From positions 62,001 to 126,000 of the forward strand of contig NOWV01000108.1 of assembly GCA_003344405.1 (NCBI GenBank): a stretch of 64,000 bases of DNA, given 5' to 3'. This document shows positions 726-62,800 of this stretch, piece by piece. Source of the stretch: Trichoplax sp. H2 (Eukaryota). Position 1 is the stretch's first letter. Each line of letters begins with the position of its first letter. A program made the translations under genes and the position numbers. The notes beneath the pieces are model-generated. The model was given only the letters and a program-made list of their open reading frames with translations, was not told where the DNA came from and did no database searches.

Positions 726-830
726 AATACGAGTACAGTATAGCCAAATACGTATCATTATAATAAGCAATTATTAACATAATCTATATTTATTTTCTTA
801 CCAGCTTAGTTGACTGGATAAATACTCACC

Positions 831-3420
831 ATGACTACTGATTTGGATGCTGATAACAATAGAGCTGGAGTCATCAACTGTACTACGACATTGCTATTAA
901 ATGATAAATCCGGCCAAGAAATAAGAAAACGATGCTATAAGACAGCCCAGCTAGTATTAGGTAGAGATCAACATAAAGAATTAACCCTACGATTGGAGAG
1001 TAATCGTGAAGTGCATACATTCTATCCTAGTGGCAATCACAGTATTCATTGTAAATTCATCCACCAAGGCAAAGCAACCATTACAATACCTAATAAATAC
1101 ATTCAGCTTATGATATCAAATTGTCCACCCACCAAATTAAGCCTATTTTTAAAATTGTTAAAATATAAAAGTGCGAAGAGCTCCAATATATCTATAATAG
1201 CTAGAGATAGAAGAGCATTATTTTCAGAGAAAGCAAAAACATTTCAAGACATCAGTCCAATCACAATTGATGATCGAAATAGAGCATCGAGAAAAAGAAA
1301 TCACCCTGACAAGACCCATAATGGCTATACTCCAACTAAAAATTGTATTGGCTCAAATGCATGCAAAAGGATTCGACAAGGTCAACATCGTCATCATTTA
1401 AGCTCGCTGACTTCAGAACAGAAGCAAATTGTACAGTACGTATTAGCCGGTCAAAGTATTTTTTTTACCGGTAGTGCCGGTACAGGCAAGTCCTTTCTTT
1501 TGAAAGAGATTATTAACCTCCTACCCCCAGACGTAACATTTGCTACTGCTAGCACCGGTATTGCAGCTTGCCAACTAGGTGGTACTACATTGCATAATTT
1601 TGCTGGCATTGGGCATGGGCATGCAACCATGCAGAGATGCCTTGAAATGGCATCAATACCTTCTCGCCTTAGGCGATGGCGAAAATGTCAATATCTTATT
1701 GTAGATGAAATATCAATGATTGAGGGTGATTACTTTGATAAAATTGAATATATAGCGCGTCAATTGCGTAAATCAAATTTGCCCTTTGGTGGTATTCAAC
1801 TGATCTTGTGTGGAGATTTTTTACAATTACCTCCAGTTTGTAAAGGCCAAGATGCTGACGTTAAATTTTGCTTCCAGGTAAAATACATAATAACAGAAAA
1901 TTCCTATACTGTACAGTCATCCGATTGATTTTTGATGTGATATTAATCCACAATAAAATTACTAATTTCCATTTAACAGGCACAATCATGGCAGCGTTGT
2001 ATTCCTCTTTGTATTAAATTAACAAAGATTTATCGTCAAGACGACTCTAGTTTTATCTCTATTTTACAAAATATTCGGAGCGGCAGGTGATTTTCTATTT
2101 TACACATTGATCAATTTATAATTATCACATGAATGAAAAATTACAACCAGATTCACAGAAGTTCGTTTATCCAATACTATATCTTTTGGTAATTCAATTT
2201 TTTCTATTCGTATAAAGATGTACAGAACAAGACATGGAAACACTACGCAAAACATCATTCAATGTCGTCAACAAGGACGAGATTCAAGCTACACGTTTGT
2301 GTACTCATAATGAAGATGTGAACCGATTGAATAAGTCTGAATTACAGGCCTTACCTGATAAGGAACATTACTTTAAATCGATCGATGGCGACGTCGACTT
2401 ATTAGCTGATGTGGATAGTAGTGCATTATCTTCCATTCCTAATATCCTTGTATTAAAAATGGGTGCACAAGTAGGTTTAATACAGACCTAAAATGACTAA
2501 TTTTAACTATTTTACTATATTTACTAGCAATATTGGATGCCATTTTTAAGCAAGTCAAGAAGACTATTGCATAAAATATCTGAATTATGTTATTTGTCAT
2601 TGCTAGGTGATGCTTACCAAAAATATCGATGTAGCAAAGGGATTAGTTAACGGTGCTCGTGGTATAGTAACATCTTTCGAATCTCAATTTGGAGGTACAA
2701 GTCAATCGAAAATTTTAAATGATAAACTATTGTAACTACTGTATCACCATTTTAGTAGACTATTACATGATTATAAACAAATTTTAAAGAAGTTATCGCT
2801 GTCCATGAAAAGTCACTATTAAATTAGAAATACAATAAATATCGTGATTATATTATATTTAAATTAATACACAGTAAATTTAAAATAATCCCTATCAATA
2901 TTTACAACCGCCTTCGTTGTCAATATACTGTACACACAGGTTTACCTATTATCAAATTTTCTTGTGGTACCCATGTAACCATTAAGATGGAAAAATGGTC
3001 TTTTCGAACATCAACCGGGTGTCTCTTCACACGCCAACAATTACCTTTAAAATTGGCATGGGCAGTCAGTATACATAAAAGTCAAGTATGTTTTCTAAGA
3101 TTTGCTAAAATTTATGTTTTTAGTAATTTAATTTCTTTTACGCACGATTATAGATCATACAGATAATAGGTGCTTTTGTATAGCTTTCTCATATGCCTGA
3201 TCAATTAATTTATTACTTTATATCGAATTAGGGAATGTCATTAGACTGTGTCGAGGTTTCCTTAGGGCGTGTATTTGAATATGGACAAGCATATGTTGCA
3301 CTATCGAGGGCACGGAATCTGCATGGACTGCGGATCATTGATTTTAATAAGCATAGCATCAAAGCACATCCTAAAGTGTTAGAATATTACATGCAACTAA
3401 ACAGCGACATCTGTGATTGA
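831..3420 (+). CDS. PIF1: ATP-dependent DNA helicase PIF1 (6 exons: 831-1877, 1980-2086, 2218-2470, 2607-2694, 2940-3085, 3232-3420)
   Basis: SF1B motifs FFTGSAGTGKS, IVDEISM, FGGIQLILCGDFLQLPPV, VMLTKN..GLVNGARG, QLPLKLAWAVSIHKSQGMSLD and FEYGQAYVALSRA. It has an animal PIF1-type N-terminal domain. All introns are GT-AG and preserve frame. Confidence 0.95.
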
Positions 3421-5195: not shown

Positions 5196-6422
5196 TTAAT
5201 CTTCAACTAAGTTGCAGACTATACGATTTAATTCATCAGCAAAGTGATCGAAAGAGAATTTACTCATGACGTGCTTTCTACCAGCATCACCATAAACTTT
5301 AGCTAGTTTAGGATGATCGACAAATACTTTCATAGCATCGGCAAAAGCTTTTGCTTCTGGATCACACCATAGTCCAGTAACTTGATATTTAATCGTCTCC
5401 AGTGGGCCTCCACTATTACACGCAATGACAGGTCTGTTCATGTACATGGCTTCGATTGGAACAATACCAAAATGTTCGTTGGTCGGCGTATACAGCAAGC
5501 AGGTGCATGAGCCTAACAATAACATTTTTTCGGTATCAGAAATGGATTTTTTAAATGTAACCTGATCAGTTAAGTCATTCCTTTGGGCAATTAATTGTAA
5601 TTCTTCATAATAGACACGATTCTCTTGCACACGATCATCATAACCGCCGGCCATAATCAGATGGACATTGGACCATTGCTCGGATGTTATCCTATCACGT
5701 AAATCAATTAGAGCATGTAATGCTAATGCTAGATTTTTTTTCTTTTCATAGCGATTAATGGATAAAAACATTATCTTTGCTTTAGGCAAAATGAGCTCCA
5801 CGGATGAATTGGATGGCGGTGTAAAAGCTTGAAAATTAACACTAGGATAAAGGACAGTTGGAGGATGATATTGTAATGTGGTGAATGTTTTTAAATAGAC
5901 TGATGCGGTAAATTTGCTATTGACTAAGACACAATCTGCTTGGCCAGTAGTACGTTCTTCAAACCAATCTATTGGAGCTCTATACATACTTTTTAAGAAT
6001 GATTTACGTTGAGTTAATAATTGATCAGGATAATGACAGTAGAAAATAACCTTGCATGGACGGCTACAATAACGAAAGATTGGTATGCATGCGGAAATTT
6101 GATCGCAAAAGATGACATCGTATTGGTAAGCAGAGAAAAATGCAAGATAAATTGCAACATAAATCATGCGTATATAGGCACATAGGGCATAGCATCGTCC
6201 CAAAAGATGGCGCGGTAACCAATCGCCGACAGCGATAATCTCTAAATCGCCATTTTGTGTCTCACGAAAGCAATGATTACCATCATGATGAGATGTATAA
6301 ATGCGAACATGATGATTTCTCTTTTTGAAAGCTAATGCAGCATCCACTACTAATCGTTCTGCACCACCAATGCCTAAATCAGGATGAATGAATGCGATAT
6401 TGAATCCACCATCAAGATGCAT
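5196..6422 (-). CDS. ALG2: Alpha-1,3/1,6-mannosyltransferase ALG2 (single coding exon; first ATG at 6422)
   Basis: FIHPDLGIGGAERLVVDAA, FYCHYPDQLL, FLSINRYEKKKN and EHFGIVPIEAM..GGPLET are ALG2/GT4 signatures. The ORF-track start at 6431 is a TTG. Confidence 0.95.
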   Translation of the reverse strand: MHLDGGFNIAFIHPDLGIGGAERLVVDAALAFKKRNHHVRIYTSHHDGNHCFRETQNGDLEIIAVGDWLPRHLLGRCYALCAYIRMIYVAIYLAFFSAYQYDVIFCDQISACIPIFRYCSRPCKVIFYCHYPDQLLTQRKSFLKSMYRAPIDWFEERTTGQADCVLVNSKFTASVYLKTFTTLQYHPPTVLYPSVNFQAFTPPSNSSVELILPKAKIMFLSINRYEKKKNLALALHALIDLRDRITSEQWSNVHLIMAGGYDDRVQENRVYYEELQLIAQRNDLTDQVTFKKSISDTEKMLLLGSCTCLLYTPTNEHFGIVPIEAMYMNRPVIACNSGGPLETIKYQVTGLWCDPEAKAFADAMKVFVDHPKLAKVYGDAGRKHVMSKFSFDHFADELNRIVCNLVED

Positions 6423-6479
6423 CTTGTTCAAGTTATCAACGATCGATTTGATCTATTCTAGGTAGCAATGCTTTAATCA

Positions 6480-21879: not shown

Positions 21880-22480
21880 CCGGACACTGGACGGACAAGT
21901 GGACTGTTCTGGACTGTAGTTTACAGTACATTGGACAGTAAAACTCCGGTCCAGTCCTGTACGCTACCGTCCTGGCTGGAAGTCTGTCTGTATAGTCCTG
22001 GACCATCAAGACGCTTCTGTATGGTACAGTACTGTACAGTACAGTACACGCTAGTGTACAGTACAGTATTGGCTATGACAGTAGAAAGATACTGTAGGTG
22101 GTGGTTGTACTGTACAGTGTACACTGTACACTGTACCGTTTACAGACGACTGGAGTATAGGACTTACTCCAGTACGGTCCTGCACTGTATTTTACAGTAC
22201 TGTCGACAGTAAAACTCCGGTCCAGTACTGTACAACTGTACTGTACGCTACAGTCCTTGCCAGACGTCTGTCTGTATAGTACTGGAAACAGAGTGCACAG
22301 TACCATGTACTGTAAGAGTGCTTACGTTGTCAAGTTTGCTTTCTTTCCAACGCCATGCTAGACAGAGAGAAGGATGCTATCGTGGCCGGACGGGGGGAGC
22401 GGTGGACGTGGAGCATCGCGGCCGTATGGAAGGAAGGACCGCGATCATACTGTACTGTAGTGTAGATTATGCCTCTATCA
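21880..22480. promoter_or_regulatory. GC-richer region upstream of ZnT7, dense in TACAGTA/TACTGTA palindromes and containing a ~90-105-bp direct duplication
   Basis: Duplicated block gacagtaaaactccggtccagt...gtctgtctgtatagt at ~21911-22002 and ~22182-22286, plus several perfect palindromes. Confidence 0.55.
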
Positions 22481-23480: not shown

Positions 23481-25766
23481 CTTTATCATACCAGTATATA
23501 TTGATAACGTCCAAGTCCAGTCAAGCCATTGAGATGCAAGTGTAATCAAATTGGAACCTATTAAATTCACATTACACGTATTTATTAACTGCATACTCGC
23601 ATATTTCGATCAGAACGAAGCATGCTTATAATACGCTTGATATCAATTACAAAAGACTAAATATACCGAGATAGCACGTATCGCTTATTCCTTATACGCC
23701 AGCTTATCTACTGACTAAAATCCGACCATATTGATGTATAATTCTATCTATCTGTGTCAAATTTACTGCAGTATACTATCCAGCAGTCGATGCAATACTA
23801 TATTAGTCGCTTGGTCATTACTATCTAGTGATTCTTCTGGTAACTGATTTAAACTTAGATGCATACTTTAAATTCAATCATTCATATATGCCATTGCATC
23901 ATTTTCCTAAATGACTAGAATTGATACCATCTATCGGTATTGACCATTTCTACCTTTCTATTACAACCAAAAACATTAATAACGCACCTGAAAATACTAA
24001 AAAAGTACAGTATACACTTCTTAATAGTAAATACGAGCTTGCCGACTTAGTAATAGGTCTGCAATGTACTATCCAGCAGTATATATATAGTAATGTGTCT
24101 CTATTTATATACCGTCTACTGCTTACGCCAGTCACTAGGATATTACCCACGATTCCTCTAGCTATTGATATTGAGTAAGCCGCTAATCTGTCGGATTAAT
24201 TGCTAAACTGTGCAATGAGGGAATATCTAGATACGTACGGTATACTATACTGTACTAGCCGCATAAGCATATTTAGGTGTACTACAGTAAGTGTATTCGT
24301 ACATTTTCATATTGCTCTGCAATATACTGTCGTTCAGGCTTGATAATCAATAGATGAAATAATTAAACGGATCGGCAACCCTAACTGTGTTGGATTGATT
24401 GATATCTACTGTATTCTATCATAATCTACATACGATATCTATATTCTACACAAATAAAAAAACACAATTCTTAATACAAAATCATGTACCGATCTCTGAA
24501 ATCGACTAAAGCTAAAATAGATTGAGATCAAACGACTAATATTGACCAATATCAATCTAATTAATGCAACAACTGAGCTCCACAGTCACTTGTATTATAA
24601 GTTCTACAGTTAGCCCAATTATATGAATTTACAACGATATTGAAAGGAAATAAGTTGCTATGGTACTGTACATCATCCATGTTAACTCAATTTGAATCAT
24701 AATTAGATCAAGCTATAGTGACTACGGCACGTTATTTTCTTAAATGACAAGCACACAAAACTTTCATCCAAGCTTCAGAAAACAATACTGTGTTTACATA
24801 AAATTCATATTCTTTAATGTAGTATAGTTAAGTAAGATAGTTGTAGTGTTCAAGTGCTGTAGGATACATTGACTAATCATGTCGAGAGAACAATATATAT
24901 ATATAAGATACATCGAATAGCAAGATAGATATCTATACTATATAACACTCATTAAGCTTGGTGAATAATCAGTGTTCCTCTTAGCAGAAACAATATAAGC
25001 GGAATGAATTGTCTACAAAACGGACGATCATTTCCTATTTTAGCCTATTGCTACTTGCTAAATTCAATCTTTTTGTTTGCTCTGCCCTGTCTTACAAAAT
25101 TGTACATGCCTTGAGCTGATGGAATCGTATTGTAACCATTAAGACTGTACAAAGTCAACATAATCAAGATTTCATTTATTGCTAGTCACACAGCAATTAT
25201 TTACAGTTAATTAGGATGACAATAGTTGAATAATAATTGTTATGTTTATTTCTAAAGCTTTGAAAACATCATCTTTTAAGGGCAAATCTCTGTATCGCAC
25301 GTGATCACATAGCTAAATAATATTTCGCTAAGCTCTTCTTCTTGCCTAATGCATATATCTTAGTCACTGTGGACACTAAAACCCGCTCTACATGTTACTA
25401 GTACTGTAAGGGAATTTCTAATTGCAGTATAAGTACTGCGAAAGCAATTACCACCATCGATATTACTATAGACGAATCAACTGAAAATAAACTAAACTAC
25501 TTCAAAGCTAATCTGAAAGGTATGATTATCCAATTTTTTTCTCCGTATCTCCTACAATATAGCGTTTAAAAATTGATAGGAAATACTTTTATCTTAAGTG
25601 AAGATGACAATATCGAGCTGGAATAGTTAACAATAACCCTAAGTTGTCCTTTTCCCTCCCTAAATTGTTAAAAAATTCTTTTCTGCTGTATTTCTCTCCC
25701 AGTCTTACGCTCATTATCAAGTAGACGCAACCTTAAAATTATTTGGGAAAGAAACTAGACTTGACA

Positions 25767-28700
25767 ATGTCTAATGATACCCTCGAATTAAGTAAGTAAC
25801 TGTACAGAAGAGAATGGAGCTCCAAGGGTGGTAGTATTAATAAATAACCGATTAGCACTCATTAACTCACATTCAGTTTCTAATCTTGTTTAAAATGGAA
25901 TTATTCATGTTGAAAAGATTGCAACCTTAGCGATTTTATTTCTATTGCCTCTATTTTATCATCCATTGCATCTATTTTCGGTAGTAATGTACTTTTTACT
26001 TACAAAGATAATCTTGTACTACCTTAATATACTAATCTAAATAGTGATAGACGAGAGTAATGATTTCGACATACCTAATTGATAACTGGTTCTATGTAGG
26101 TATTCCACCTGAGGATGTAGAGAAATATACACAATTATTCAATCAGCATGCAGCTGATGGAAATTATATAACATGTAAGCGCTAGATACAACGATTCCTC
26201 ATTAGATGGTTACTCCTAACAATTTAGAATGCATATAGATTTTCTGTAATAATAGATCACTTTTTAATACTAAATTGATCATTGTTTAGATGACGAAATA
26301 AAGAATATCTTCCATCAATCAGAAGTATCCGATACAGATGGAGAGAATTTATGGTAAGTTAATAGTATATATCTTACAAATAGAGATGCATGTTATGTAA
26401 AATAGCATAGTCCAGATATTATTCCTCTGGCTTTAAAATTTCATAGAATCCGTAATATTATTTCACCATCTATAACGATAATCATTTTCTATCATTCAAT
26501 TTTATTTCATTGGGCAACAACAATAATTATAATTGAATAGTAATAACTATTATTGGTGAAATTTTTTAAAAGTTAGCATTATATCAATATCATTTTATAA
26601 TTTCATATGCACATTTTATAACAAGCTTACCTCATAATAAGAAATACCGTATAGTAAAGTTACCCACATAAGATAGATAGCCCTAACATAACTCTTCGTC
26701 TAAATATTGTAATTGATTATTAAATCATACGATATTTTAACGTAAATCGATACGTAAATCGATGAGAAGAATCTGCTACATCAATTCATGAAAATCCCTA
26801 TTTACAAGTTAAAATAGTTTACTAATTAATTTACATTCAACTAGAATAGTTCTTCTTTCCACATATCAATCTTTACATGGAGGGCATATTTATTTATTAA
26901 TAATCGTTCAATGTTCCGCTATTAAAGGGCTACTAGAATGGGATTAATTAAAATAACTCTTTTTCCATTTCTACCGAATATAAATCGATCACGGTGATAA
27001 TTTTAATAGATTGCAGTTCTTTCAAAAATATCAATATAAATTTCGGATTTTTTACCTCATTCCAATCGAACTAAGATTGATGAATTAATGTTACTTCTCA
27101 TCGCATTTCAGTTTGCCTATTCGCTAACGTTCTATCGAGAATTTACTATGCCACGTATAAGTATTGAATCATAGAAATCAATGTATACTCGAAAAATGAA
27201 CAGTAATCTCGTTACTTTACTCCTACCATCTTAATTATTACAGGAACATTCTATTATTACATTACAATTTACAATAATCACAATCATAGTCATGTTATTT
27301 CAATCTACTGATTGAATTCCCACGGAAAATCATTATATTATGCCCGAAAACGTTTCAATCTACGATTTTTTTCCTTGTCAACTTGGATAGCTATATACCC
27401 TATTCTTGCACATTTATGAACAAGGAATGAATTTATTACGATATTGTAACTTGATATTATCTAATTTAATATCACTTTTATTTATTTAATAATCTCGGTA
27501 AACTTTTTTATTATACAGCGCTACAATTGCTTAAGTAATATCAAGTCTTGTAATTTACATCCAGTTTCTATTTCAACATTAAAACATTAGTCGGCGGTTC
27601 ATTACTTAACTCTTGTCATAAAATATTAATGAGCGAGGAATATACACGATAGTATATACAAATGAATCATAATATTTAAATCTCAGCACTATTAACATTA
27701 TCAGCGATTCATTATAGCTCTATGTCAACATCTTTTTTTACCACAAAAAGAGATTACATGATTGCTCCCATCATAGCTACACTTGAGACATGCAATACTG
27801 TCTATTTGCAGGTCAATCTTCTTTAATTTGACAATATTCAAAAATTTAATAATATTAATCATAAGACTACATCACCTGCATCATCAATCTTTCTTAATAG
27901 ATAATTTAGTTTTGATGATAACTTAGATTACTGTATTACACTATATCTGCGGTACCTATCTGCAGACGGATTTCCTTAATTTTACAACATTAGCTCGATT
28001 ATATTATAAATCTTCCTGAATATCGCATATAATATAGTTTTGATGACGGCCTACACTATACTGACTATCCACAGACTAATCTTACTTAACATTATAACAT
28101 TCTGAAACTTAACAACGCTAATTATACGAATAAATCGATCATATTGTAATTCTTTCTAAGTACATAATCCGATATAGATAACAGTTTAAGCTATATTACC
28201 GTTCTTCAAGCGATTTTTCTTAATTTGATAGCAATCTAAAATCCAACAACGCAACATAATTCTATTCTATTATATCGTCCACATCCATATCGATATTATC
28301 GTAAATCTTTCTAAATCTACAACCTAATTTGATGACAACTTCAACACAAAGCTTCAAATACAGAATACTGCTCTGTTGTCTATCTGCAGATTGATCTTTC
28401 TTGATTCTATAACATTCTGAAACTCAACAGTGTCAATTATACGATCGCATCGACTATATTGTAAATCTTTCTTAATATACAATTTAGCTTTGACGATAGC
28501 TTCAGCTATACTGCGGCACCTATTTGTAGACAGATCTTCCTTAATTTCAGAACATTATCAAACTTTACAATATTAATTATACGACTAAATCGACCATGTT
28601 ATAAATCTTTTTTGAATCTATAACAATCTAGTGTAGATGACAGTTTCAACTTTGAGTCTATCTGTAGACTGATATAAACCTTTCTAAATCTATAATAATC

Positions 28701-31700
28701 TACTTTTGATGACATTTTAAACTATACAGTCTATCTGCCGACATATCTTTTCTCAGTTTTATAATATGGTAAAAATTCAATAACGCTAATTATACCACCA
28801 CATCGACTACATCGTAAATCTTTCTTAATAATATGGTATTGATAATAACTTCAATTATCCTAGCTATCTACCGGCTGATCTTTCTCAATTTTAAGCATTC
28901 CAATTTGAACTTTAACAAGGCTAACTAATTTTACAACTACATCAACGGTTTTATAAATCTTTCTTATGGTTAAAATATATTCTAGTCTTGATGATAACTG
29001 CAACGGTAACTAACGATCCTACTCATCAGTGGGCCAATCTTCCTTCGTTGTAGAACATTCTCATTTGAAATTGAATAACGTTCAATATACCCGTACAACG
29101 CCATCAACTCTGTCTTAAATCTGTCTCTATACTTAATCTAGTATAGATAGTTATTTCTCATGAGCGATTTAAAAAATGTCCTAGCAGAACGTCAATTGAT
29201 CCAATAGTAAAGTAGAAGCATTCTGATCGTTGACAGCCTTACCTGTATGTTGATTTACCCTATTCTATATTCCATGATCTTTTATGCATTGAAGCAACCC
29301 GAACAGTATTTAGCCAATAATTGTCATTGTAAGTAATCCGTTGCTAATTATTTCACAAGGGTATAAAGCACAAAAGAGAGATCAATTAACATGATTAGAG
29401 TTATAAAAATGTTAACGTTGTATTGTTAGATCAGTTACAGTAAAGCTATCACCATCGGCTAGAACTATAGGCCATCACTAACTGCGATCATCCTATTTGC
29501 AGAAGCTAAGTCATAGTATCATTCATGACAAAGAGTAACTTTGGATAAAATCAAATATCACTTCAATAAGATGGCTTAAACTAAAGTAAATTGACAACAG
29601 GAATAGAATGATAATCCATCTACTCGTCGTTGTATATTGCGATTTTAAATTGACTACGAAAGGCTATTTTAGCTATCGTCATTAACGCATCGATCAAAGG
29701 GTAGACTAATGTGTATTTCTATGTCTACATTTTGTATTTTATGTCTGTCGTGACTATTGTCAAATTGATCCATCTATCCTTGCCATTGCTATTGACAATC
29801 ACGTTGATCCACTAGGGGGGTGGAGGTACAATAGCTAGCCAGGACAAAAGACATTTTATTAATATATATCCAACTTTGAAAGATTAATAGAGCTCAAAGT
29901 GATTGTGTAGTGGGGATTCTAACTGCGTGTTTTCATCCGCTACCTCTGGACTATTTCATCCTGTCAAAAGCCAGAAAAATTCTTCTGGTCATCAATAGAA
30001 GGAACATTTATAATATAGCTAATCTAGATTATTATTAACCACTTTCCTAGTTTACTTTGCTAAAAATCGTTTAACTCATTACAACACCTACTTCGTAAAA
30101 GGAACATAATTTGTGTAGATCGCTAAATTTCCACACTTCGCCATTCCACAAGGTAATGTAACAGGCCTGTACGGAATTGAAATCGCTTAGCTTATAATAA
30201 CGCTTATAATTACCTATTTTTTCTTCTCTCTTCCATATTTTTTTTATAATATTAAGGTAGTCGGTTTCTTTCTTTTTTTTAATTCAATCTTCTCCTACGT
30301 GTATTGTAAGGTTTAAAGACAGTATTGAGATTTATTACGCTATCGATTTTCTCCATTTCATTTAACTACGGGGGGAACATGGATTCTCCTGACGTCTATT
30401 TTCCATGGAGTCACGTTGTTTTATCGCCATCTAGTGAGTTACTGCCTAAATTCTATCCCAATCTACACCGTAGTGAAAAGATACTGTCGTTATAAACTTA
30501 TAGTTGCATCCATTCTACATATAGTCATGTTATTTTCATCGTTGCGCGAATGATTAAATGTTCAAATTCTATGTAAATTCTGTCCTGAAGAGAAAATCTG
30601 TTTTCGTTATAGTTGTGTCCATTTTATATGTGGTAACGTTATTATTTTATCGTTATTCTAATCAATTAATGTTTAAATTCAATCCAAATCTATCCTAAAG
30701 GGGAAATGTGCTTTGTTAGAACTTATAATAGCGTCCATTTTACGTTAAATCATGTTCTCTTATCGTTATCCTTAAGATTAAATGTCTAAACTCTATCTAA
30801 ATTCATCCTAAAGAGAAAATAGACGTTTATTACAACTTAAAATTACATCCATTTTACGTGTAGTCATGTTGCTTTATCGTTATTTTACTGAATTAATGTC
30901 TCAATTTTGTCTAAATCCATCTTGACGAGAACATAGCCCCTTAAAGTCGTGATGATGAAATCATGAGCTGGACAGTAGAAGTAGCAATAAGGCGACAGAG
31001 ACATTAATATCATCGTTGAAAATCATACCCTGATTTTTCATTCTACCATTTCTGTCGTATAACTTACAGCTATTTCGCAATATGAATTCATATTGGAAAG
31101 AGAGAACCACTCTTTCACGCCGAATTTCTACAGATGATAAAATTAAAATGTAATTGAAGAATTAAAATGGCCGTAAGAACCAACGTTTAACCCCTAGTCA
31201 GTCAATATGCAGTACTGTAGTACAGGAGATTTAGAGAATAAAAATTCTTATATGTATTGATCAATATCACTACTTATTTATACATAGAAATCTCTTCACC
31301 GTTATAGAAAAGGTTTCACAATAACGTATTAGCATATCCATGTCCGTTCAAACTCTGCATATCCTTTTCAATAGAAAACCTCATTTTTACCATTTCGCAG
31401 TCTAGGAAAGGCAACGTTCTATGCTATAGTATAATATTCATTAAAAACTTAGTCCTGTCATCAAAGTTTAGAAAGAAAACAAAAAATAATTAATCCGTCT
31501 TTTCTCTTCCTCTATCAACTTTATTTTATACGCCCTTATATTGGCTATCATTACCAATTCTTAGTTCTATAAAAAATGATCGTAACCTTCTCACAGGATA
31601 TCATAGCTTGTATCAAAACATTCATATTTGCTGTACCCAATACTTATACACCTTTAGTGCTTAAAAATAATCAAGCTTAATGTTGGTAATTTATTCTATC

Positions 31701-34700
31701 AATTTGAGATAATTTCTTACTCAATTGCGATAAATTTAGTTGTACCATTACCTTATCTTAAGCTTTTTCATAATGGTAAAACAAGCAATCAGATTTAATA
31801 TTAAATTCTCGGATATGGCAAACAGTTTTAAATTATACAAACACATCGAAAAAAATGGCTCAAAGTCTAAAAATACTACAAACATACCGTCGTTTTTTTG
31901 TCAGATCCAAACATTAGATTCTTTGGTAATGTAACAGCAGGCAATCTGAATATAGTTTGGATATTCTATACGAGAGGCGAAAATAATTCAGAGTCTTATG
32001 CATATACCAAACATAGCATTTTTTTCAGACTAGAAAATTCGATTCTTTGATAATGTAAAAGCAATTTAAAAGTAGCCTGGATTTTATATAAAGAAATAAA
32101 TTCAAAATTTTAAAAGTACAGCACACATACTCTTATAGCCTAGTTTGATAACAGAAAATTTAATTTTTTGACAACGTAAAAGCGAACAATTTAAAAGTAG
32201 CATAGATATTCTATTCGGAAATAATTCAGAATCTTATCAATACGATGCCTATAGCGATTTTTACTTATTCAAATTTAAAAATTGGTTTCTTTTGATAATG
32301 TAAAAGTAAGCAATTTGCACATTATATATTGAAAATACTTCAGATTTCTATAAATACATAGTATAGAACATTTTTTTCATCAGATTGGAAAATTTATTTA
32401 TCGACAAGGTAGAAGTAACCAGTTTAAAAGTAATATTTCTATATGCAAGATCATCGAGAGTCTTAAAAACGCGACGTATATAGCGCTTTTTACTAGACAA
32501 TTACTTGATAATTTGATTTGGATAATGTAGAAACAAATAATTTGAAAGTAATCCAGATATTCTATATATAAAAGATTATTGACAGTCTTGTAAATGCGAC
32601 TCAGATAGCGTTTTTTACTAGATTTAAAAATTCGATTTTTTGACGATGTAGAAACAAGTAATTTGAAAGTAATCTGGATATTCTATATATGAAAGATTAT
32701 TGACAGTCTTATAAATGCAACGCATATAGCACTTTTACTAGATTTGATAATTCGATTTTTGAAAATGTAGAAACAAGTAATTCGAAAGTAATCTAGATAT
32801 TCCATATGAAGAGAATGGAAAGGATAATAAATACGATGCATATGGCGTTTTTTTACCAGATTTAAAAATTCGATTCTTTGATATGTAAAAGTAAGCATTT
32901 GAAACTAATCTGGATTATCTATATCCAGGAGAATTCAGGGCCTTATAAATACGATGCATAGAGCGATTTTTGCATTAAATTGGATATTTACATTCCATGA
33001 TGATCCAAACACAACTTGCAACAAACTGGACACGTTTTATAAATTAAGTTTCTTTACTAGCAGTCAGTAGTTAGGAAGAGTTCTGTAAAAGAGTCATGAT
33101 TGCTTCTATAGCTTTAATTTAGACGCTTCTATACCGGTGCTAATCACCGATGTTATGTATTCCTACAATTTCGGAAATAACTATCTTGTAATTCAATTCA
33201 CTTAGCAGCCAATGATACCGTTAAAAATTGAAATCACGAAAACTATATCTAATTACAATCTTAATTGAGTTGTTAACATATGATGAATATTGGAATACCA
33301 TCATGATACCTGCGGCTTATAGCATTTATTTCAATTTCTTGTTACGTAGGAATTTAACAGCAATAACAAACATCGAGAAGAGAAATTTGGACGAATTTTT
33401 AATCACCATGTCATTATTAGAAAAAGAAAAAAATGAAGAAGAACTACCATCGACATTACCTTCCCATATAAATATTAATAGCAAAGTTGTTGAAAAAACT
33501 GTTACTATTAGTGGCACTAACGTTCAGACCAAGACTGAAACTCATACGACAGTCAAAAGTGATCAAGTTGCTTTATCGAATGCTGAATTGTTGAAAATGA
33601 TGGAAGAAAAAATGGATGAAGAAACCGATGAGAATGGTAATACAGACGAAACAAATAACGCTAAGAAAGCTAAAACAGCACCATCCAATGCTGAATTAAT
33701 GCGTATGTTAGAAGAACAAGGCGATGATGACGGAAATGATAATCAATCTACTTCGGTGGTCGAGACAACCACTACAACTGAAATAACGACTGTAACAACG
33801 CATAAAAATGGCAATCCATCATCCAATGGACCACCAACAACAGCAGAATTAATGAAAATGATGGAAGAAAGTGAGAAAAGCAATCAAGAAAGTCACGGTG
33901 ATAATGATACTCAAGATAGTAGCACAAATCCATCAGCGGATACAGCCAATAGCAATGACAACGACGATGAAGGTGAAACTTACAAATTCGGTGAAAGAAA
34001 GCTATCTAAAGCTGTTATGGAGGAAAAAAGTAAACTAATATTTGAGAAAGATGTACGTGATGACGATGTAGATGCCATGAGGCAAGATTTAAAAGAGCGT
34101 AATGGTGAATCGAAGAAGCAATGGGAAGATAAAATGAGAACTGCACTTGAAGAACCAGAGGTAGTACCGGGAGAAGTCGATCCGTCTAAAGAAGCTGAAA
34201 GATATAAAATGGAAAGCCTAGAACAAAAACGAATTAAAGAAGAAGAAGAAAGACTGAGAAAACAATTATTACAGAAAATGAAAGAAAAAGAAGAAGAAGA
34301 TGCGGCAGCAAAAGAGTCACAATCAGACAGTGATGATGAAGACTTTCAACAAATATTAGCTAAGAGTAAATTACAGGCCAAGCAAATGTTTAGTAAGTTA
34401 GAAAAAGATAATAGTATTAGTCAAGCAGAAAAGAAACGTGAAGAAGAGCGTAAACGACGTAAGCAAGAGCAAGAAGCAATACGATTAAGGCGAGAGCAGG
34501 AAGCACGTGAGAAAATCAGAAAGCAATTAGAAGAAAAGAAAAAAGCTGAAGAAGAATTGAAGAAAAAAATGAGTGCTGATAACCAATCTCAAGATGATGT
34601 CGATTCATCATCGCAATATCACGAAGAATATGAAATCAAATCTGTTGGAAAGTTGAATATTAGCTCGTTTACCAAGTCGCAACAGAAACGTGACGATGTT

Positions 34701-36447
34701 GAAGAAGAACGCCAACGTAGAATCAAAGAACGTCTACGACAAGAAGAAGAAGAAGCTCAACGTATACGTGAAGAAGAAGAACGGATGAGGAAGCAATTAC
34801 GCCTAAAACAAGGTGCCGTCAGTGATGAAAATGCAAGTGCAGAAACAGAGTCTGAGACAACGCAACCTGCCGTCGGTAGTCGAGGTGTTGGACGATTACA
34901 ACTTAATAAATTTGGTGTATTTCAAGGTAAGCGATCGGATGAAGAAGAGCAACAGCATAAAATTGAAGTCAGAAAAAAATTAGAAGAAGAAGAAGCTAAG
35001 CGTATCGAGGAAGAAGAAGAGCGTATGCGTAAGCAAATGCTGGTAAAATTAGCCGCAGCCGGAGGAAATACAACCGGTGATTCTGCAGCCGATGGATCAG
35101 AAGGGAGTAGACGACAATCCACGGCTTCAGCAGAATCAGAATCCAGTGGATCGCGTGTTTCTTGGTCATCGAAAGAGGCAGGACCTAGTGTCTTGGAGCA
35201 ACGTAAATTGTTAGAAAATAGATGTAATATTGTTGAACAAGAGCGTCAACAACAAATAGCAAGAAACAAGGCTAAAGCTGAAAAAGATGCTATTAAAGCT
35301 AAAATGGCTGATACAGTTCAAAGAAGCGTCGATACCCCAGCTCCTGCTACAGAATCATCTCATAATGTACCAACACCAGCTAGTAATCAACAAGCAACAG
35401 CAACTAATAAAATTCATATTGATGCATCAGCTAATGATACTGCCGAAGACGAAGAGCAATTGCATGCTATTATGGCTGAGCAAAAATTCCGAGCTAAACA
35501 GTTATTCGAAGGGATAGGTCGAGATGCCGGTTCACGATCACCTAATCCTGATAGAAAAATTGAACCGATTAACTTGAATAAAATAAATCAAACATCGGAA
35601 TCTACTCTGACAGGAGCTGAAAATAAAGTTACAGAAGTGCCAAAATTAGATGATTTATCCTATCGTAAACGTCATTTGATGTTGGAAGAAGAACGATTAA
35701 GACAACAACGCAAGGAAATTGAAAAGCAGGAAAGGCTGTTGTTAGCTAAGCGAATTCAGCAATCGAGTCAGGACCAAAATCAAGATCATTCTGCCATAAT
35801 AGAGGCTAAAAAAGTGAGTAAATTAAGTAAAGAAAGATTCGCATTGAGTACAAAGAAAGAAGAAGATGATGATGACGATAAAAAACAAGAAAGAATACGT
35901 AAAGAAGCTGAAGAAGCAAGAAGGATACAAGAAGAAGAGGAAAGAATGAGGAAACAATTTGCTAAGAAGCAAGCTCAAGAAGCACAAGCCGCAAAGCCGA
36001 CAGCAGTAGCTGATGTTAGTTATAAAGACGACACTAAAGATATTAAATCGGTTGGCAAATTGGCAAGGGATAAATTTAATTTTACACCTACTCGAGATGG
36101 TGAAGGGATTGATCAAAAGAAAAAGATTGCATTGAGAATGAAGCAAGAAGCAGCAGAAGCCAAGCGAATAAAGCAAGAAGAAGAAAGATTAAGAAAGCAG
36201 CAAAAGAAGGAAATTGAGGTAATTAGACAACATTACTCTTATTCTTGCATCAGTAGGTAGATGACATCTCAGAGATCGAGAACATATATCAGCTTATGTA
36301 TTTTGATCTTACATTTTAGGAGTTTGTATCCTATTTTATCATTTATTAATTATACTCGTAGATATGAGCAACATGATACCACTTGATAATGATTATAATC
36401 TCCTAATTTATCTTTTCTAATCTTAGGATCCTACAATCGCTATCTAA
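25767..36447 (+). CDS. Uncharacterised ~1017-aa protein: N-terminal divergent EH (Eps15-homology) domain followed by repetitive E/K/R-rich helical modules (exons 25767-25791, 26100-26174, 26290-26353, 33350-36218 and probable last exon 36427-36447)
   Basis: Phase-consistent GT-AG splicing gives MSNDTLELSIPPEDVEKYTQLFNQHAADGNYITYDEIKNIFHQSEVSDTDGENLW|NLTAITNIEKRNLDEFLITMSLLEKEKNEEELPSTLPSHI. This follows the EH pattern (Y..lF...G.i....k..f..S......iW.L.......l.EF...M.L.......LP..LP). It continues into a 2.87-kb open exon. Total is 3054 nt, a multiple of 3. Confidence 0.75.
27800..29130. repeat. Old, degenerate tandem array (~110-155-bp unit) in the long intron of the EH gene
   Basis: Recurring ctatctgcaga, taaatctttct and tttgatgac-like blocks. 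Confidence 0.75.
30390..30930. repeat. Degenerate tandem array, ~115-bp unit, 4-5 copies
   Basis: tccatt(t/c)ta..gtcatgtt..ttatcgtt..ttaaatgt recurs at ~30509, 30618, 30734 and 30848. Confidence 0.8.
31880..33000. repeat. Tandem array, ~120-bp unit, ~9-10 copies, more similar toward the right end
   Basis: gataatgta(a/g)aa..aatttgaaagtaatctggatattctata recurs about every 110-125 bp. Confidence 0.88.
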
Positions 36448-37510
36448 CCATCAAGGAAATGGTTCAATGTATTATTACTATGTTTTTGGTTGTTATAACA
36501 TGGTATAACGATCTGTCTTGGAATATTTTATAAGCCGAAATTTAAATCTACATTTTCAATATTAGCCTTGATTATTCAACTTGGGGATAGAAAATTATAA
36601 TTGCTCGATAATCATACTTGCCAATATTACTGTATTTCGTTGATTTTCCATCGGTATATTGACGTTATTGTAAAAGGAAATTGCTAAAAAATTTTTTTAA
36701 GTGCAAGTACGCCTACCAAAGTATAAAGTAGAACGGAGTTATTTAAAATTTTTAAAAATTGGACAGATTCATATCTGTCATAGTGCCACTTTTTTGTAGC
36801 CAACAGTCAATAAATCTGATTCCATCTTAATTGTAATGTTTTCGTTAATTTTGGGTAACTTTTTAAGATGATTGCTATAAAAAAGGTATACAATACTCAT
36901 AAATGTAATTAATATATGATTTGTTAATTATTATCAAATCTAATCGTTTGTATCAGTCAGTATCAATCATCATATTCGTAAAATTAATTAGATTGGTGTA
37001 ATTAAGATACTGTAATGATGACAATTTGTGGTTCTAGAGATGATTAATAAATCAATTTTTACCAAAATGTCAACCTATGGTATAAAACACTCGATTGAAA
37101 AGCTATTCTAGTTCCGTGGAAAAATATCATCATTCTAGTTATGGATATAGAAACTTTTTAATATTCAGTTGAGAATCTGAACTACGAATTATTCACTGTA
37201 ACATTAGTACTTTTTAATATTCAATAGAGCGTGAAGTTGTCTGGTAATGAATCATTTGATCCGTTAGCTATATCGTTGTCTTATGCTATGTAATCGTTAA
37301 AGTTGCCGTGATGAATATAGTTTAATCATATAATCATAGGAATATCAACGATTTTTTTATCGTCAAACTTGAAATGACTATTACATCATAATAGTCATCA
37401 GATACAAACATATCGAGATTGAAATCACTTTAAGCAAGCTATAAATTTATTGTATAGATTCGGTCAACAATTTTAAAGTAAAAAATCTGAACATACACCA
37501 ATTGTATCGA

Positions 37511-39957
37511 TTATACATCCATAGATATCGCCGCTTCAAATGTAGAAAGGTCAATAGCGAATTGTTTCAACATATCATTCTCCAAGTAGTGCGTTTTACC
37601 AGCAATAATTAACGAATGAAGAGGACCACCTAAGTCGTATGAAAGCATCTCTTTCATAGTTCCAACTGCAATTTTTTGAGTTGCAGTACCAATTCGAGCT
37701 AATCCGACACATAATGTGTTTTCGTCATAAGCTAAAAAAAAAGTGCATTGGTTTTCGGATAAATAATTACGACCTATGATAAAACTAATTTTTCCCTGAT
37801 AATAATAATTCTTATTACCGACACTACTTTCGCCAAGACTTTGCTTATTCTTAACAATTTGTAACAGCTGATCAACAGCTACATTGACTGACATATAACG
37901 TGGAGGCTCAAATATCTTTCGACCCCTATCATTATCGTGATAGCAGATACTCTTATTATGAAGACATGTATCCATTATCGGTAATACAAGTATCATACAA
38001 AGCAAAAATTGATTACCTCATTAAATTTTCAACAGATTGTTCTTTGACTTTTATATCTAATAAAATGGAAAAGTAGTACTCCTATTATCAACAGTATTAC
38101 GTTGATAGTCTAACAGTAAACGTACTGCTTATATTAAATCGAGATGTTTGCTTACAGGTAAATACGAGTAGTGATAAAGTTACCACCTTACCTAGCAAGC
38201 ACAGAGTATGAAGATTTCGTTGACGATTTTCCAGAATTTTTGTGTAGAAACTATCTGGGCGCCAGTCATCATTCCAGAAAACAATGGAAACTGTTTCGCC
38301 GAATGTATATAGCTATAAATTTCAGCAAAATAATTCGATTTATATGAAGTCAACTTATTATTGCAGTACTACACATAATAGCTCTCCGCTATTACGATGC
38401 TTCAATAAATGGTAATTTTAAGTACCTGCAGTCCACAGCAGCCTACTGCATTCATAATTGATGCATTGTGGATTACATTGTAATCAATTCCAGCTTCAAT
38501 AGCTCTTAACACTAAATCGGAATGGGTAGTAGCTCTATCATATTTCACAACGTTCAAAGAGAGGTCAGAAAGATAATTTGTTACTAACATAAGCTATCGG
38601 ATCAAGTCGAATAGGCGCTTCAACGAGAGATACGTATTGCTGGCAATTTGATAGGCAGAGTACTAAACTTAGACTAAGGCTATTTGTATCTGATATTTTT
38701 ATATCTCGGACTTGATGCTAACTATCTTACTGTTATCTAAACTATTCATGATTATAAACCTAATTACTACATAATATATTGTATTTATTTAATCCTTTTA
38801 AATTACCGAGTGCTAAGTTATACTCACCCAAAAGGATCTCCAACAACTAGAAAGGCAATATCTTCCTTGTCTGCATCTGCCATAATTGTATCTAATTTTT
38901 TTAAAAATATTGCATTATTGTACGATGTATCATGTATAAGATTGTAATAAGATAATCAATGAAAGTGAGTAATAGCAGCTTTGCATCTCAATTATATAAT
39001 AATTATTTGACAAATATTTCAATATGATACGATGCGTAAAGTATAGGATTAATTATACAGTAGTTTTAAGATGATTTTACAAATGTAAGTAATAGTAATT
39101 GTACTACATCAAGTCTTATTTTTGCATTTTCAATTATTCAACCAATATTTCACTATTATGGTGCGCATAGAGTAAGTATAGTATAATTGGGATAATTTAC
39201 AAAATTGGATCATACTATATACGTACATTATTTAGTATTTTTAATTATTCAATAAACATTCCATTATTACAGTATGCATAGAGTACAGCATTATAGTTTG
39301 GATAGTTTACAAAATTAGATTATACTATACAGTACACGTACAGTATTTGACATTTTTAATTATTCTGCAGGATTTCACTATGATGGTACACATAGAGTAG
39401 AGTATTCTACGTAGTTCGGATGATTAACAGAACTAGATCATAGTAAGCATGTACAGTATTTGGCATTTTGGCTTATTCAACCAATATTGCATTACTACGG
39501 GATGCATAGACTAGAGTATTCTAGTTAGGATGATTTACAAAAGTGGATCAACGCTAGCATGTCCAATAGTTGGAGATACCATCATGCAGTTAGCATACCA
39601 GAATCTTGTTCCACCATATCTCGATCAGCTAAGATCACTTCTCTGCCATAGAATTCCTCCTATCAATATTCAAATCCAACATTACCATTAAACAATGATA
39701 TTAAACTGTATTTCGACTTTTACAGTGATAGAAATAGCTCAAAATACAGCGGTAAAAATGCTGCAGGTCAGGATCGCTGTAGCAAGTAGGTCAATCAATC
39801 AATGTAGGTCGATAGTACTTACTAACTGTTGCTTATCCACACTTAATATGGACGTATATGCCTCAAGATAGACTCTTTTAGCTCCTTTAGCTATTCTTAA
39901 GCCCTTGACGGTAATATCGTCAACATCACCTAATCCTAAACCAATTAAATAAAACAT
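37511..39957 (-). CDS. DPH5: Diphthine methyl ester synthase (8 exons: 39957-39823, 39659-39599, ~38892-38828, 38534-38426, 38312-38192, ~38056-38017, 37925-37819, 37731-37511)
   Basis: [118 protein letters not shown]. Confidence 0.96.
39110..39560. repeat. Degenerate tandem array, ~112-bp unit, 4 copies, in DPH5 intron 2
   Basis: (g/a)cataga(g/c)ta..ggat(a/g)atttacaaaa recurs at ~39166, 39277, 39390 and 39504. Confidence 0.82.
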
Positions 39958-59808: not shown

Positions 59809-62800
59809 AAAGTTACCGTGGCGCAACAACAACCACCACAACAGAGCGCTTTCATGCAAGGGCAGCCACAAAATAGAGGTATGGCTTATCCACCACCACC
59901 ACCACCACCACCTGGGACTGATGTTCAATATTCGGTTGATCCGAATACAGGAGACAGCATGTATCCTAATGGTGCTGTGTAAGTAAATATATACGCAGTA
60001 ATTATGTTTCGTAAGTTTAAAAAATTTGTTTAATTAGATTTTAAGTCAATCTTTTATTTATACTGACTATTTATCGAGATAAATTTATAATTTCATTTTA
60101 TATTAGCATGTCGAATAATATAATGATATTAAAGTATTAATTGATGACACTATAGTTGTATGGTATTGTATATGTATACTAATTGGCGTTACTTGTAGTA
60201 GGGGAGTCAACTATGGCTATGCCGATGGTAATACTATTTATGCTCATCATCCGCCAGCCGTCTCATCGTCTTATTACGAAGCCGGTCAAGCTAATGTAGT
60301 AACAAGTGGTGCTCAAATGATGGGTCAGGTATCCACTGGACCTGGGACTTACGTTGTCCCACAAAGTGGGGGAATCAAGGAAAATTATCCAGTCCCTCAT
60401 ACTACTCGTGCACCACCTGCTACGGTATTAAATTTTATCCTTATACGAAATATATAGCATTTACATTCGTTTACGATGCAATACTATAGCTGTAAATAGT
60501 TGGCGATTGTTAAAGGTGAAAATCAATTTGCATAAATCTGTATATTGGCAGTGTACAGTACTACGTAGAAATCATTTTAGCTATAACAAGTAACCTTGAT
60601 GATAACTTTCAACAAGTTCAACTCTCTTATTTATTAGAGTCCAAGATCAGATTTTTAGTAGCTAACAAGTAGCGCATAAACAGAATTTCAAAGTCTTACA
60701 GCATCTGCTATAGCTTAATAAATATTATTTAGCAGCAATGTGCTATATTGTAACACCTTTGCACTATTAACTAATAAGTAGATCTAAGGTGCTAATCAAT
60801 TAATTAAGTACTTGAAAGACAACTTGCCATAAGCCTTTTAACTCCTAAGTGGACATGCACATATACAGTATATATACATACTAATATGAAATACTCCATT
60901 TCTTATATAATTAATATATTCACATGGACAGGTTCAGTGGCTATTGGACAACTATGAAACAGCAGATGGTGTTAGTCTACCGCGGAGTTTGTTATACAGC
61001 CACTATTTACGTCATTGTGAGGCTAACAAATTAGATCCCGTGAACGCTGCCAGTTTTGGCAAGTTAATTCGTTCTGTTTTTATCGGATTAAAAACTAGAA
61101 GATTAGGCACTAGGTAATTCCAAAATCTAAAGAATGTTTTTTAGTTTATTGCTATGCATACCAAAATTCTTAGCGAATGCTAATAATTGCTCATTCATAT
61201 CGATGGTGTAATATAGGGGTAATTCGAAATACCATTATTATGGTATTAGGATAAAACCGACTTCTCCATTAAACAATTTACAAGAAGATTGGCAAATGGC
61301 AATGAGACAGCAGCCAACACAGCAAATAAAAAGGTTAGTGCTATTTATGGAACCTTACGAAAGAAAACCTTTTCGAAAGTAAAATCATATAGTAATCTCA
61401 AGATCTACGAATATGTAATAATATGGTAATATTAATGTGGTAGTAAAAGTAAAGCATACTGTTGATAGCATACGTGTATGCTTACTTACTATTTGCTATT
61501 ATGATAAACTGTACTCTGAAATACTTAAATTTAAATTTGCTTACGGTAGTAAAACCGATGGTAGTGATCAAGATGGTCAAGGTGAACAAGAAGATGAAAA
61601 TGAAGTAGATTCTGAACATGAAACAAATCAACAACATCAACATCAACAATTTCTTGGTGATGCTAGTACCGCTTTACCTAATTTTGAAACTCTAGAACTA
61701 GCTGATAATGAAATCCCTGATGGCATTAAAGCTGCTGATGTAGTCACGTTTGCACAGATGTACCGTGAACATTGTGAAGTAAATAAATTGAAGTGATACT
61801 GTAGACATTTTACTACAGATATTTGATTGTTAAGAATTAAATACTGTGAGAGATCGATCTGATACATTGCTTATAGTCGATTTTACTAAATATTCTTACA
61901 TTATATTTAGGGCATCCTAAATGTTATTGTCAACTTGCAATTTGAAACGGTGCTAACGCTATGGAAAAATTTTTGGAGGTGTCCTGTTGGTTCAGAAGAA
62001 CCAGAAGCTATGGAAACCGATGCCCCTATGCCTGAAATTTCTGACAAAGATCGGTTGGTGATTTACGCTAAAACAGTTAAAATAATAATTTATACAATAA
62101 AACATCCTCTTTGCTTACATTATAATGATATTTTTGTACCTTGTAACGGCAGTCAAGAAGCCTTGGATAAAATGGAACAACGATTACCAAAACAAAAATT
62201 GGTTATATTGTGTAGCATTGAAAATGTAACATTTTATATGAAAAAATGCGACTACTGCCTATACCAAGCTTTAGTTGACGTTTTAGTTCCCGATGTTTTA
62301 CGGCCAATACCTCGTTAGTTCATATCTGTAAAAATATATTTTTATGTATTAACGCCGAAATATGTTAAGGTGATATATGATTTCTTATGAATGTTGTTCG
62401 ATGCTTACCTATACTAGCTGCTCTTACCCAAGCTATTCGTAACTTTGCGAAGAATCTTGAAAGTCAGTTGATAGCTAGCATGGTTGGAATTCCTCAAGCT
62501 ATCCAATCTGCAAAGGTAAATTAAAATATGATCCTACAATTTAGAAGTTTAATTGCTATAATGCGCCTAAGATTCATTGTAGGGTATAAAGCTAACTTAA
62601 TCATGCTACATGTTCACGTTTAGATGATAGCCGTAAATGCTTTTTCGCAAACATTACGAAGATATACATCATTGAATCATTTGGCTCAAGCAACACGAGC
62701 AGTCCTCCAGAATTCAAATCAAATTAGCCAGATGTTGAGCGATCTCAACCGAGTTGACTTCTCAAATGTCCATGTGAGTACTAAATACGCCGTATATATT

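Follow-up and report, generated by a model that had tools for sequence, protein, structure and literature searches.

A divergent EH domain spliced across a 7-kb intron to a repetitive charged tail in Trichoplax sp. H2, with a likely EH-less isoform from an intronic first exon

The stretch of AT-rich eukaryotic DNA analysed here (the window: 64,000 nucleotides (nt) of Trichoplax sp. H2, assembly GCA_003344405.1, contig NOWV01000108.1, positions 62,001 to 126,000 of the forward strand) carries on its plus strand a five-exon gene, TrispH2_007699, that joins a divergent EH domain to a long, repetitive charged tail. Joined by script, 25767-25791, 26100-26174, 26290-26353, 33350-36218 and 36427-36447 form a coding sequence of 3054 nt whose 1017-amino-acid product, P0001, is identical letter for letter to TrispH2_007699 / RDD40207.1, a 'hypothetical protein' in the public record; the product of the 2.87-kb exon taken by itself has 100% identity to TrispH2_007699. 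All exon borders are GT..AG, the acceptors are pyrimidine-rich, and the codon of Trp55 is divided TG/G between 26353 and 33350. The original prediction, made from the letters and a list of open reading frames (ORFs), had these exon coordinates, the in-phase splicing and the split Trp codon exactly, its translation being identical to P0001. Its remark that three small exons had been missed is true of the ORF list, which left them out because they are small, and not of the public annotation, which already holds the exact model. Nor is the gene 'hidden', as had been claimed: the public record of RDD40207.1 carries a precomputed EH-domain label, and a supplementary table of 2023 lists the gene with EF-hand_4 (PMC10580291). 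What was public before this analysis thus comprises the exon model, the EH label and the expression module; new here are the putative intronic promoter with its likely EH-less isoform, the substitutions in the peptide pocket, the anatomy of the tail and the recognition that the published name, 'intersectin_1', is a misnomer. A search of the main texts of papers found none that mentions the locus tag. We are highly confident of the gene and isoform structure of the locus.

The third intron (Table 1) is far longer than the other introns seen nearby, which measure 87-707 nt, and its unusual length is largely explained by three degenerate tandem arrays that fill much of it (about 27800-28970, 30419-30939 and 31900-32971, with units of about 140-315, 114 and 119 nt that are 60-90% identical). 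A search of 25000-37000 against Rfam returned no family. The protein ends on the short peptide DPTIAI, encoded by its own 21-nt exon portion, which might serve as a hydrophobic C-terminal PDZ-type ligand.

Table 1. Features of TrispH2_007699, with positions counted from the first letter of the window. X1, X2 and X10 are the RNA-like runs described in the text.
Feature	Position	Strand	Remarks
Exon 1	25703..25791	+	5' untranslated region from about 25703 (probable contig start, by depth arithmetic); ATG 25767-25769; coding part of 25 nt gives MSNDTLEL and the first base of Ser9; joint 25791>26100 in X1
Exon 2	26100..26174	+	75 nt; first EH helix and first (pseudo) EF loop; X1 joints on both sides
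Exon 3	26290..26353	+	64 nt; ends in TG, the first two bases of Trp55; X1 joint 26174>26290
Intron 3	26354..33349	+	6,996 nt, GT..AG; contains the putative promoter, the leader exon and three degenerate tandem arrays
TATA-like box	29863..29869	+	TATATAT, about 27 nt upstream of 29890; putative promoter element
Leader (alternative first exon, non-coding)	29890..30152	+	at least 263 nt; donor GT at 30153
Exon 4	33350..36218	+	2,869 nt; opens with the G that completes Trp55; residues 55-1011; RNA contigs in X1, X2 and X10
Met75 ATG	33408..33410	+	first ATG of the leader transcript, offset 58 into exon 4, in frame; probable start
EH-coding span	25800..33485	+	residues 12-100, broken by introns 1-3; Pfam, PDB matches, AF2 and Foldseek, half-domain scores
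AEL(L/M)xM(L/M)EE motifs, three	33582..33869	+	residues 133-141, 169-177 and 220-228; regular expression on P0001
Tail module, copy 1	34623..34811	+	residues 480-542; KSVGKL..F, then charged helix ending EEEERMRKQ
Tail module, copy 2	34866..35051	+	residues 561-622; motif RGVGRLQLNKFGVFQGKRS, almost unaltered in P0002
Ser-rich block, SRRQS...SGSRVSWSSKEA	35106..35180	+	residues 641-665, before the third helix 669-709; kept in P0002, where the flanks diverge
Tail module, copy 3	35793..35972	+	residues 870-929
Tail module, copy 4	36030..36215	+	residues 949-1010
Intron 4	36219..36426	+	208 nt, GT..AG, phase 0; joint printed 36216>36425 (cut +2) in X1, X2 and X10
Exon 5	36427..36962	+	coding sequence 36427-36447 (DPTIAI, stop TAA); 3' untranslated region covered at least to 36962 in X1

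Pfam, the predicted fold and matches to solved structures agree that residues 12-100 form a true EH domain, albeit a divergent one. EH (PF12763) is the sole Pfam family matched in P0001; its score of 34.6 bits (E 1.9e-8; profile positions 3-93 of 101) clears the cut-off of 22 but lies below the 116-126 bits of the single best-matching domain of the EH proteins P0020 and P0026. The domain is visible only in the joined exons: taken without the rest, neither the exon-4 product nor exons 2 and 3 match any family at E<=10. A hidden Markov model (HMM) built from 19 other EH proteins, free of the query although its members had been chosen as matches to P0001, gives 74.8 bits to residues 1-114, 31.7 to the half encoded by exons 1-3 and 33.8 to the exon-4 half, scores that none of 200 shuffles of each half reached (highest 5.6); that the two halves score on both sides of the 7-kb intron argues that the splice between the EH exons and exon 4 is functional. 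Against PDB, phmmer finds intersectin-1 EH2 (3.6e-6), AtEH1/Pan1 EH2 (5.6e-6) and Eps15 EH2 (4e-3), and also intersectin-1 EH1. The AlphaFold2 (AF2) model of residues 1-114, from an alignment of 20 rows, has a predicted local distance difference test (pLDDT) of 81, a predicted template-modelling score (pTM) of 0.72 and four helices (12-25, 34-43, 48-57 and 68-82), in keeping with the paired helix-loop-helix motifs of the EH fold, and the first 11 Foldseek matches in PDB are all EH domains. The profile and structure checks therefore bear out the EH domain that had been proposed, with its conserved Trp and LPxxLP tail: Trp55 aligns with Trp169 of Eps15 and is invariant in 20 of 20 alignment rows. 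In the ESM Atlas, the whole protein retrieved one EH cluster at 0.81, below the level at which matches were counted.

The second EF loop, said at the outset to lack the D-x-D-x-D-G ligands, has A59, T61, I63 and E64 at those places of the aligned EH domains and only the last ligand, Glu70, is left. No EF-hand_1, EF-hand_6 or EF-hand_7 match is found in P0001 at E<=1, unlike the EH-bearing matches scanned, all 14 of which have EF-hand_1. To judge by its residues, the calcium loop is degenerate; a canonical loop after the Trp is frequent among EH domains, though not all have one. The peptide pocket was read from an ungapped alignment with Eps15 EH2, with the residue roles described for that domain in PMC2238750. 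Among the pocket residues, Trp169 is kept as Trp55, Val151 is conservatively replaced by Ile37 and Leu155 by Phe41, as in POB1; of the gate residues, Lys152 is kept as Lys38 and Glu170 is Asn56.

Transcription of the locus was followed in the assembled contigs of four runs, X1, X2, X4 and X10, of which X1, X2 and X10 come from three studies. X10 is recorded as RNA, and all of these three contain spliced contigs, hence RNA-like; X4 behaves as DNA, because its depth is even (about 90) over exons and introns and it has none of the intron joints of the locus. The commonest assembled transcript skips the EH exons and starts inside the 7-kb intron: its leader is spliced to exon 4 by a GT..AG joint, 30152>33350 (printed 30150>33348, cut +2; 3197 nt skipped), that is found in all three RNA-like runs, and the X2 and X10 contigs cross this junction unbranched. 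Downstream, the GT..AG joint 36218>36427 is likewise present in X1, X2 and X10. The joints that connect the EH exons, 25791>26100 and 26174>26290 (both GT..AG, contig depth 84.5), are found in X1 only, one of the three.

Whether the EH exons are in turn connected to the tail can be read from how the X1 contigs break. The acceptor 33350 is used in X1, X2 and X10, where the donor listed is 30152 and not 26353. However, the X1 piece that follows 26290 has 63 letters instead of 64 or 65, as would be expected if the aligner assigned the ambiguous G to 33349; the X1 exon-4 contig starts at 33349, and the X1 leader contig shares exactly 31 letters with exon 4. Such an overlap and the break at 33349 are together what a branch in a k=31 assembly graph leaves behind, and the second incoming path shares only its final G with the leader (...TATG as against ...ACAAG). 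Depth agrees: when the depth-84.5 contig is placed on 33349-33378, two X1 bins are modelled at 6.13 and 57.86, against 6.13 and 57.9 observed, whereas modelling them without that contig gives 3.53 and 56.57. Contig geometry and depths in X1 fit an EH-to-tail junction in all 6 modelled bins; in X2, the same arithmetic reproduces all six bins with no such contig. We therefore take the junction 26353/33350 as present in X1, indirectly and in one run of three. Of the five junctions of the locus, those of introns 1, 2 and 4 and that of the leader with exon 4 are thus found as joints in the contigs, while the one singled out in the original prediction is inferred for X1 and absent from the joints listed.

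The leader is free of ATG and is interrupted by stops whichever frame is read. Its 5' ends are ragged, at 29890 in X2 (the longest contig), about 29906 in X1 and 30040 in X10, and no AG stands ahead of 29890. Given the lack of an ATG and of a preceding AG, and the TATATAT upstream, it looks like an alternative non-coding first exon served by an intronic promoter. An internal 'poison' exon was considered and ruled out by the missing AG, the ragged 5' ends and the X1 exon-3 contig that continues into exon 4. The ORF from Met75, with A at -3, encodes 943 amino acids and retains only the last EH helix. It is likely that translation starts here and yields a form that would lack the EH fold.

The tail shared by both transcripts matches no Pfam family and, searched alone in the ESM Atlas, has no usable match. 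Residues 100-300 are acidic and rich in Ser, Thr and Asn, and they include the three short AEL-type motifs of Table 1; from about residue 330 the composition turns to Glu, Lys, Arg and Gln. The repetitive charged tail that had been described is real, and takes the form of four copies of a 62-amino-acid module (37-50% identical to copy 1, with 16 invariant columns) laid out as (K/R)xV(G/S)(K/R)L....F, a spacer, and a helix ending EEAxRIxEEEER(M/L)RKQ. AF2 models residues 470-710 with helices at 492-545, 585-625 and 669-709 (block-mean pLDDT about 87-97) that do not pack on one another (pTM 0.23); the linkers are of low confidence and the VGRLQLNKF motif is non-helical. Hydrophobic residues occupy only 0.33-0.44 of the a and d heptad positions of these helices, which favours single charged helices or weak coiled coils over a classical coiled coil. 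A stringent single-charged-helix score of our own making flagged no segment, and we judge it too strict. The Ser-rich block between copies 2 and 3 resembles a regulated linear motif; that it is a phosphoregulatory site is a guess from its letters. A regular-expression search of P0001 found no clathrin-box, NPF, DPF, DP[FW] or FxDxF-type motif.

Relatives were sought by an exhaustive phmmer search of 1.84 billion representatives, a library in which relatives more than 50% identical are merged into one representative, so that close placozoan orthologues cannot appear. It returned 73 matches: P0001 itself, P0002, P0069 and 70 proteins that match via the EH domain only. P0002, the sole tail relative found, is a 242-amino-acid fragment on an ENA contig, 70% identical to residues 503-702, and keeps the motif, the helices and the Ser-rich block while its linkers diverge; P0069 matches the low-complexity stretch 182-249. 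Searches of public proteins for homologues (one of which scored only the 8000 candidates sharing most words) returned P0001 itself or nothing. The supplement of the cell atlas of Najle et al. 2023 (PMC10580291) places TrispH2_007699 in the module TrH2.brown, labelled 'epithelia_dorsal', a dorsal-epithelium module led by beta-spectrin, and lists the gene with the Pfam label EF-hand_4 and the automatic name intersectin_1. For the cytoskeletal link that had been suggested, this shared module, at a weak membership score of 0.574, is the one hint. It groups the H2 gene in OG_1159 with HoiH23_PlH23_004133 and Hhon_g04241.t1 of Hoilungia, and lists separately, for placozoans, a canonical intersectin (EH-EH-SH3x5-RhoGEF-PH-C2; HoiH23_PlH23_003146), a three-EH Eps15 of Trichoplax adhaerens (Tadh_TriadG58856), REPS1-named genes (one in H2) and several EHDs (PMC10580291). 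Because these canonical genes are separate and OG_1159 is placozoan in that table, TrispH2_007699 appears as an extra, placozoan-restricted EH protein and not as an intersectin orthologue; intersectin_1 is an automatic best-human-hit label, and a misleading one. The protein has no SH3, DPF, End3 or dynamin parts and is no orthologue of Eps15, intersectin, EHD or End3, nor, it seems, of REPS; the proposal that it belongs to none of the Eps15, intersectin, REPS and EHD families stands to that extent, as far as the published table goes.

The explanation that best accommodates these results, and which we consider fairly probable as a whole, is that of one placozoan-restricted gene whose two promoters make the EH domain of a charged scaffold or adaptor optional. 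Promoter 1, starting near 25703, would give exons 1-2-3-4-5 and the 1017-amino-acid EH-plus protein, whose divergent EH domain is predicted not to bind calcium; promoter 2, with the TATA-like box at 29863 and a start near 29890, would give the non-coding leader spliced to 33350, translated from Met75 into the 943-amino-acid EH-minus form, with a promoter logic that may parallel that of human Eps15 and Eps15b. The shared tail would be built as beads on a string, an acidic stretch with three short helices followed by isolated charged helices and disordered, motif-bearing linkers, and could serve as a long multivalent spacer or adaptor in cells of the upper epithelium. The optional EH domain might then dock this scaffold to NPF-type or related peptides on membrane-traffic proteins, in which case the choice of promoter would decide whether the scaffold is recruited through its EH domain. 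This reading as an adaptor we put forward tentatively, with more doubt than confidence.

Several observations weigh against this two-promoter account or parts of it. The joint 26353>33350 itself is not among the joint rows listed, and the EH exons assembled in one of the three RNA-like runs (their absence from the X2 and X10 contigs being no evidence that the EH isoform is absent there). The X1 depths are not additive, 84.5 and 56.4 feeding an exon at 55.7-78, and contigs cannot establish transcript starts or abundance. No shorter protein that covers residues 1-300 came up when one was searched for. In the atlas supplement, the module membership of TrispH2_007699 is weak (0.574), HoiH23_PlH23_004133 is entered without a Pfam domain and OG_1159 lacks a member from T. 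adhaerens (PMC10580291), so that the EH-to-tail fusion is unconfirmed in other placozoans. It may be peculiar to H2, or else the small EH exons, or the gene altogether, may have been missed in the models of the other species. Finally, the peptide pocket is altered: Leu165 of Eps15 EH2, whose mutation abolishes NPF binding, is Gly51 here, and the edge residues Gly148, Val162 and Gly166 are Tyr34, Asp48 and Glu52 (PMC2238750). On these residues, a changed ligand specificity is as likely as plain NPF binding.

Taken further, the altered pocket raises the alternative that the EH domain is a decayed relic without peptide binding and that the protein acts via its tail, for example as a spacer or binder of the cortical cytoskeleton in the manner of the charged helices of caldesmon or microtubule-associated proteins (MAPs), with the EH-less isoform as the functional norm. 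Gly51 and the three altered edge residues fit such decay, as do the low Pfam score beside P0020 and P0026, the lost calcium loop, the finding of leader transcripts in 3 of 3 runs as against 1 of 3 for the EH exons, the H23 orthologue listed without an EH label and the module shared with beta-spectrin. Against it stand the retained open frame and perfect splice sites, two halves that each score about 32-34 bits, a confidently predicted fold and a pocket in which Trp55, Lys38, Ile37 and Phe41 are kept or conservative; a small residue at the Leu165 place also occurs in a functional domain, Eps15 EH1, which has Ala (PMC2238750); and the tail matches no caldesmon, MAP or other cytoskeletal family at E<=1, nor does it have a usable Atlas match. 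We regard this alternative as unlikely, though it is the one that survives best.

The closeness of the EH domain to intersectin suggests another origin, that of a stripped-down intersectin/Eps15 paralogue working as an endocytic coat scaffold that oligomerises through a KLERQ-like coiled coil. Its EH domain finds its best sequence and fold matches in intersectin-1 EH2 and EH1, in the best library match (P0003) a charged region comes after three EH domains, the published table gives the automatic name already mentioned, and K, L, E, R and Q abound in the tail. However, identity to intersectin EH domains is about 30%, no SH3, DH, PH, C2 or UIM family is matched and DPF and NPF motifs are missing, a canonical intersectin is listed separately in a placozoan (HoiH23_PlH23_003146), and the helices have weak heptad cores and do not pack in the model; we hold this origin to be rather improbable. 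Least probable of all is that only the 1017-amino-acid EH form is made and the leader contigs are non-productive or regulatory transcripts, or 5' ends whose assembly is incomplete: a transcript start cannot be proved from contigs, the X1 EH-exon contig is the deeper one (84.5 against 56.4) and the public model has the long form only, but the leader-33350 joint recurs in three runs of three studies with canonical GT..AG, the X2 and X10 contigs run through it unbranched, and an ATG-free leader with a TATA-like box at about -27 leads to an in-frame ATG with A at -3 and a 943-amino-acid ORF.

Throughout the eukaryotes, endocytosis and the coupling of membrane to cytoskeleton are organised by adaptors with EH domains, and the cell biology of early animals is reconstructed in large part with the help of placozoans. 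If the two-promoter, EH-optional gene is as we describe it, a lineage-restricted EH protein would stand beside the canonical placozoan set, and removal of the EH domain by an intronic promoter, in the style of Eps15b, would also be found in a very simple animal and in an EH gene that is unrelated. In practice, public models hold one of the two likely isoforms, and the small EH exons may be missing from the orthologue models of other placozoans. A bolder view, which we offer as a long shot, is that of a placozoan-only family of upper-epithelium scaffolds, in which a promoter-switched, calcium-blind EH domain would bind a non-NPF ligand and the tail, a ruler of charged single helices with four copies of the conserved basic-hydrophobic motif, would tether the cortical cytoskeleton by its motifs. 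If true, the contractile dorsal epithelium would have a linker between membrane and cortex of a new kind.

Other features of the window were noted beside the gene. Downstream, on the minus strand, a neighbour gene at 37507-39822 has seven short introns of 87-707 nt with CT..AC joints in X1, X2 and X10; its 168-amino-acid ORF (37511-38017) has no Pfam match. Upstream, dense ACAGT/GTAC arrays fill 21900-22460, and very many joints of RNA contigs, often chimeric, are concentrated together with loose ends at 22024-22140 in arrays of the ACAGT type. With at most one mismatch, 31 copies of ACAGTACAGT are counted in the window where 4.25 would be expected, 14 of the 31 lying within 21900-22460. By Pfam, a long ORF at 822-1928 (plus strand) has a PIF1-like helicase domain and an LRR1-type PH domain, 5196-6452 (minus strand) is an intron-free ORF for a GT4 glycosyltransferase of 418 amino acids, and an ORF at 61911-62318 (plus strand) has an RFX BCD domain.

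Set beside known EH proteins, TrispH2_007699 resembles several families in part. EHD ATPases combine a dynamin-like G domain with a C-terminal EH domain, whereas P0001 has no such Pfam match and its EH domain is N-terminal; REPS/POB1 proteins have a central EH domain and, at the C-terminus, a coiled coil that binds RalBP1, and the EH domain of REPS1 is a weak match (E 0.93). Like fungal End3, P0001 carries a small EH region at its N-terminus and continues into a helical C-terminal part that repeats internally, and the second EH domains of the End3 type (P0020, P0035) also have degenerate calcium loops; unlike P0020, it has no match to the End3 C-terminal family PF12761 (E<=1), the two proteins are 18% identical when aligned, and the tail of P0001 is far longer. 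The closest EH domains are EH2 and EH1 of intersectin-1 (PDB 2kgr and 3fia; E 3.6e-6, Foldseek E 4.3e-5, template-modelling score 0.66), which share with P0001 an Asn after the conserved Trp, and in intersectin too a helical region rich in charged K, L, E, R and Q follows the EH domains; intersectins have two EH domains, a coiled coil and five SH3 domains, with or without DH-PH-C2, and P0001 differs in having no second EH, SH3, DH, PH or C2 domain and in its degenerate calcium loop. For the tail, the nearest likeness may be to ER/K single alpha-helix spacers, which occur in caldesmon and in myosin VI and X: both have long helices rich in Glu, Arg and Lys, here predicted as unpacked and with weak heptads, although P0001 matches no such family by sequence and the stringent score noted above flags no segment. 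No Eps15 orthology of TrispH2_007699 was found, and P0001 differs from Eps15 in having one EH domain instead of three, no DPF repeats and no UIM match. Nevertheless, it is Eps15 that offers the closest parallel for the whole arrangement proposed here, an N-terminal EH region on a long helical scaffold together with an intronic alternative promoter or first exon that gives an EH-less isoform: human Eps15b arises from a promoter in intron 12, has no EH domains and localises elsewhere than Eps15 (PMC2373575), the difference being that Eps15b has a unique N-terminus of 32 amino acids where the Trichoplax leader is non-coding.

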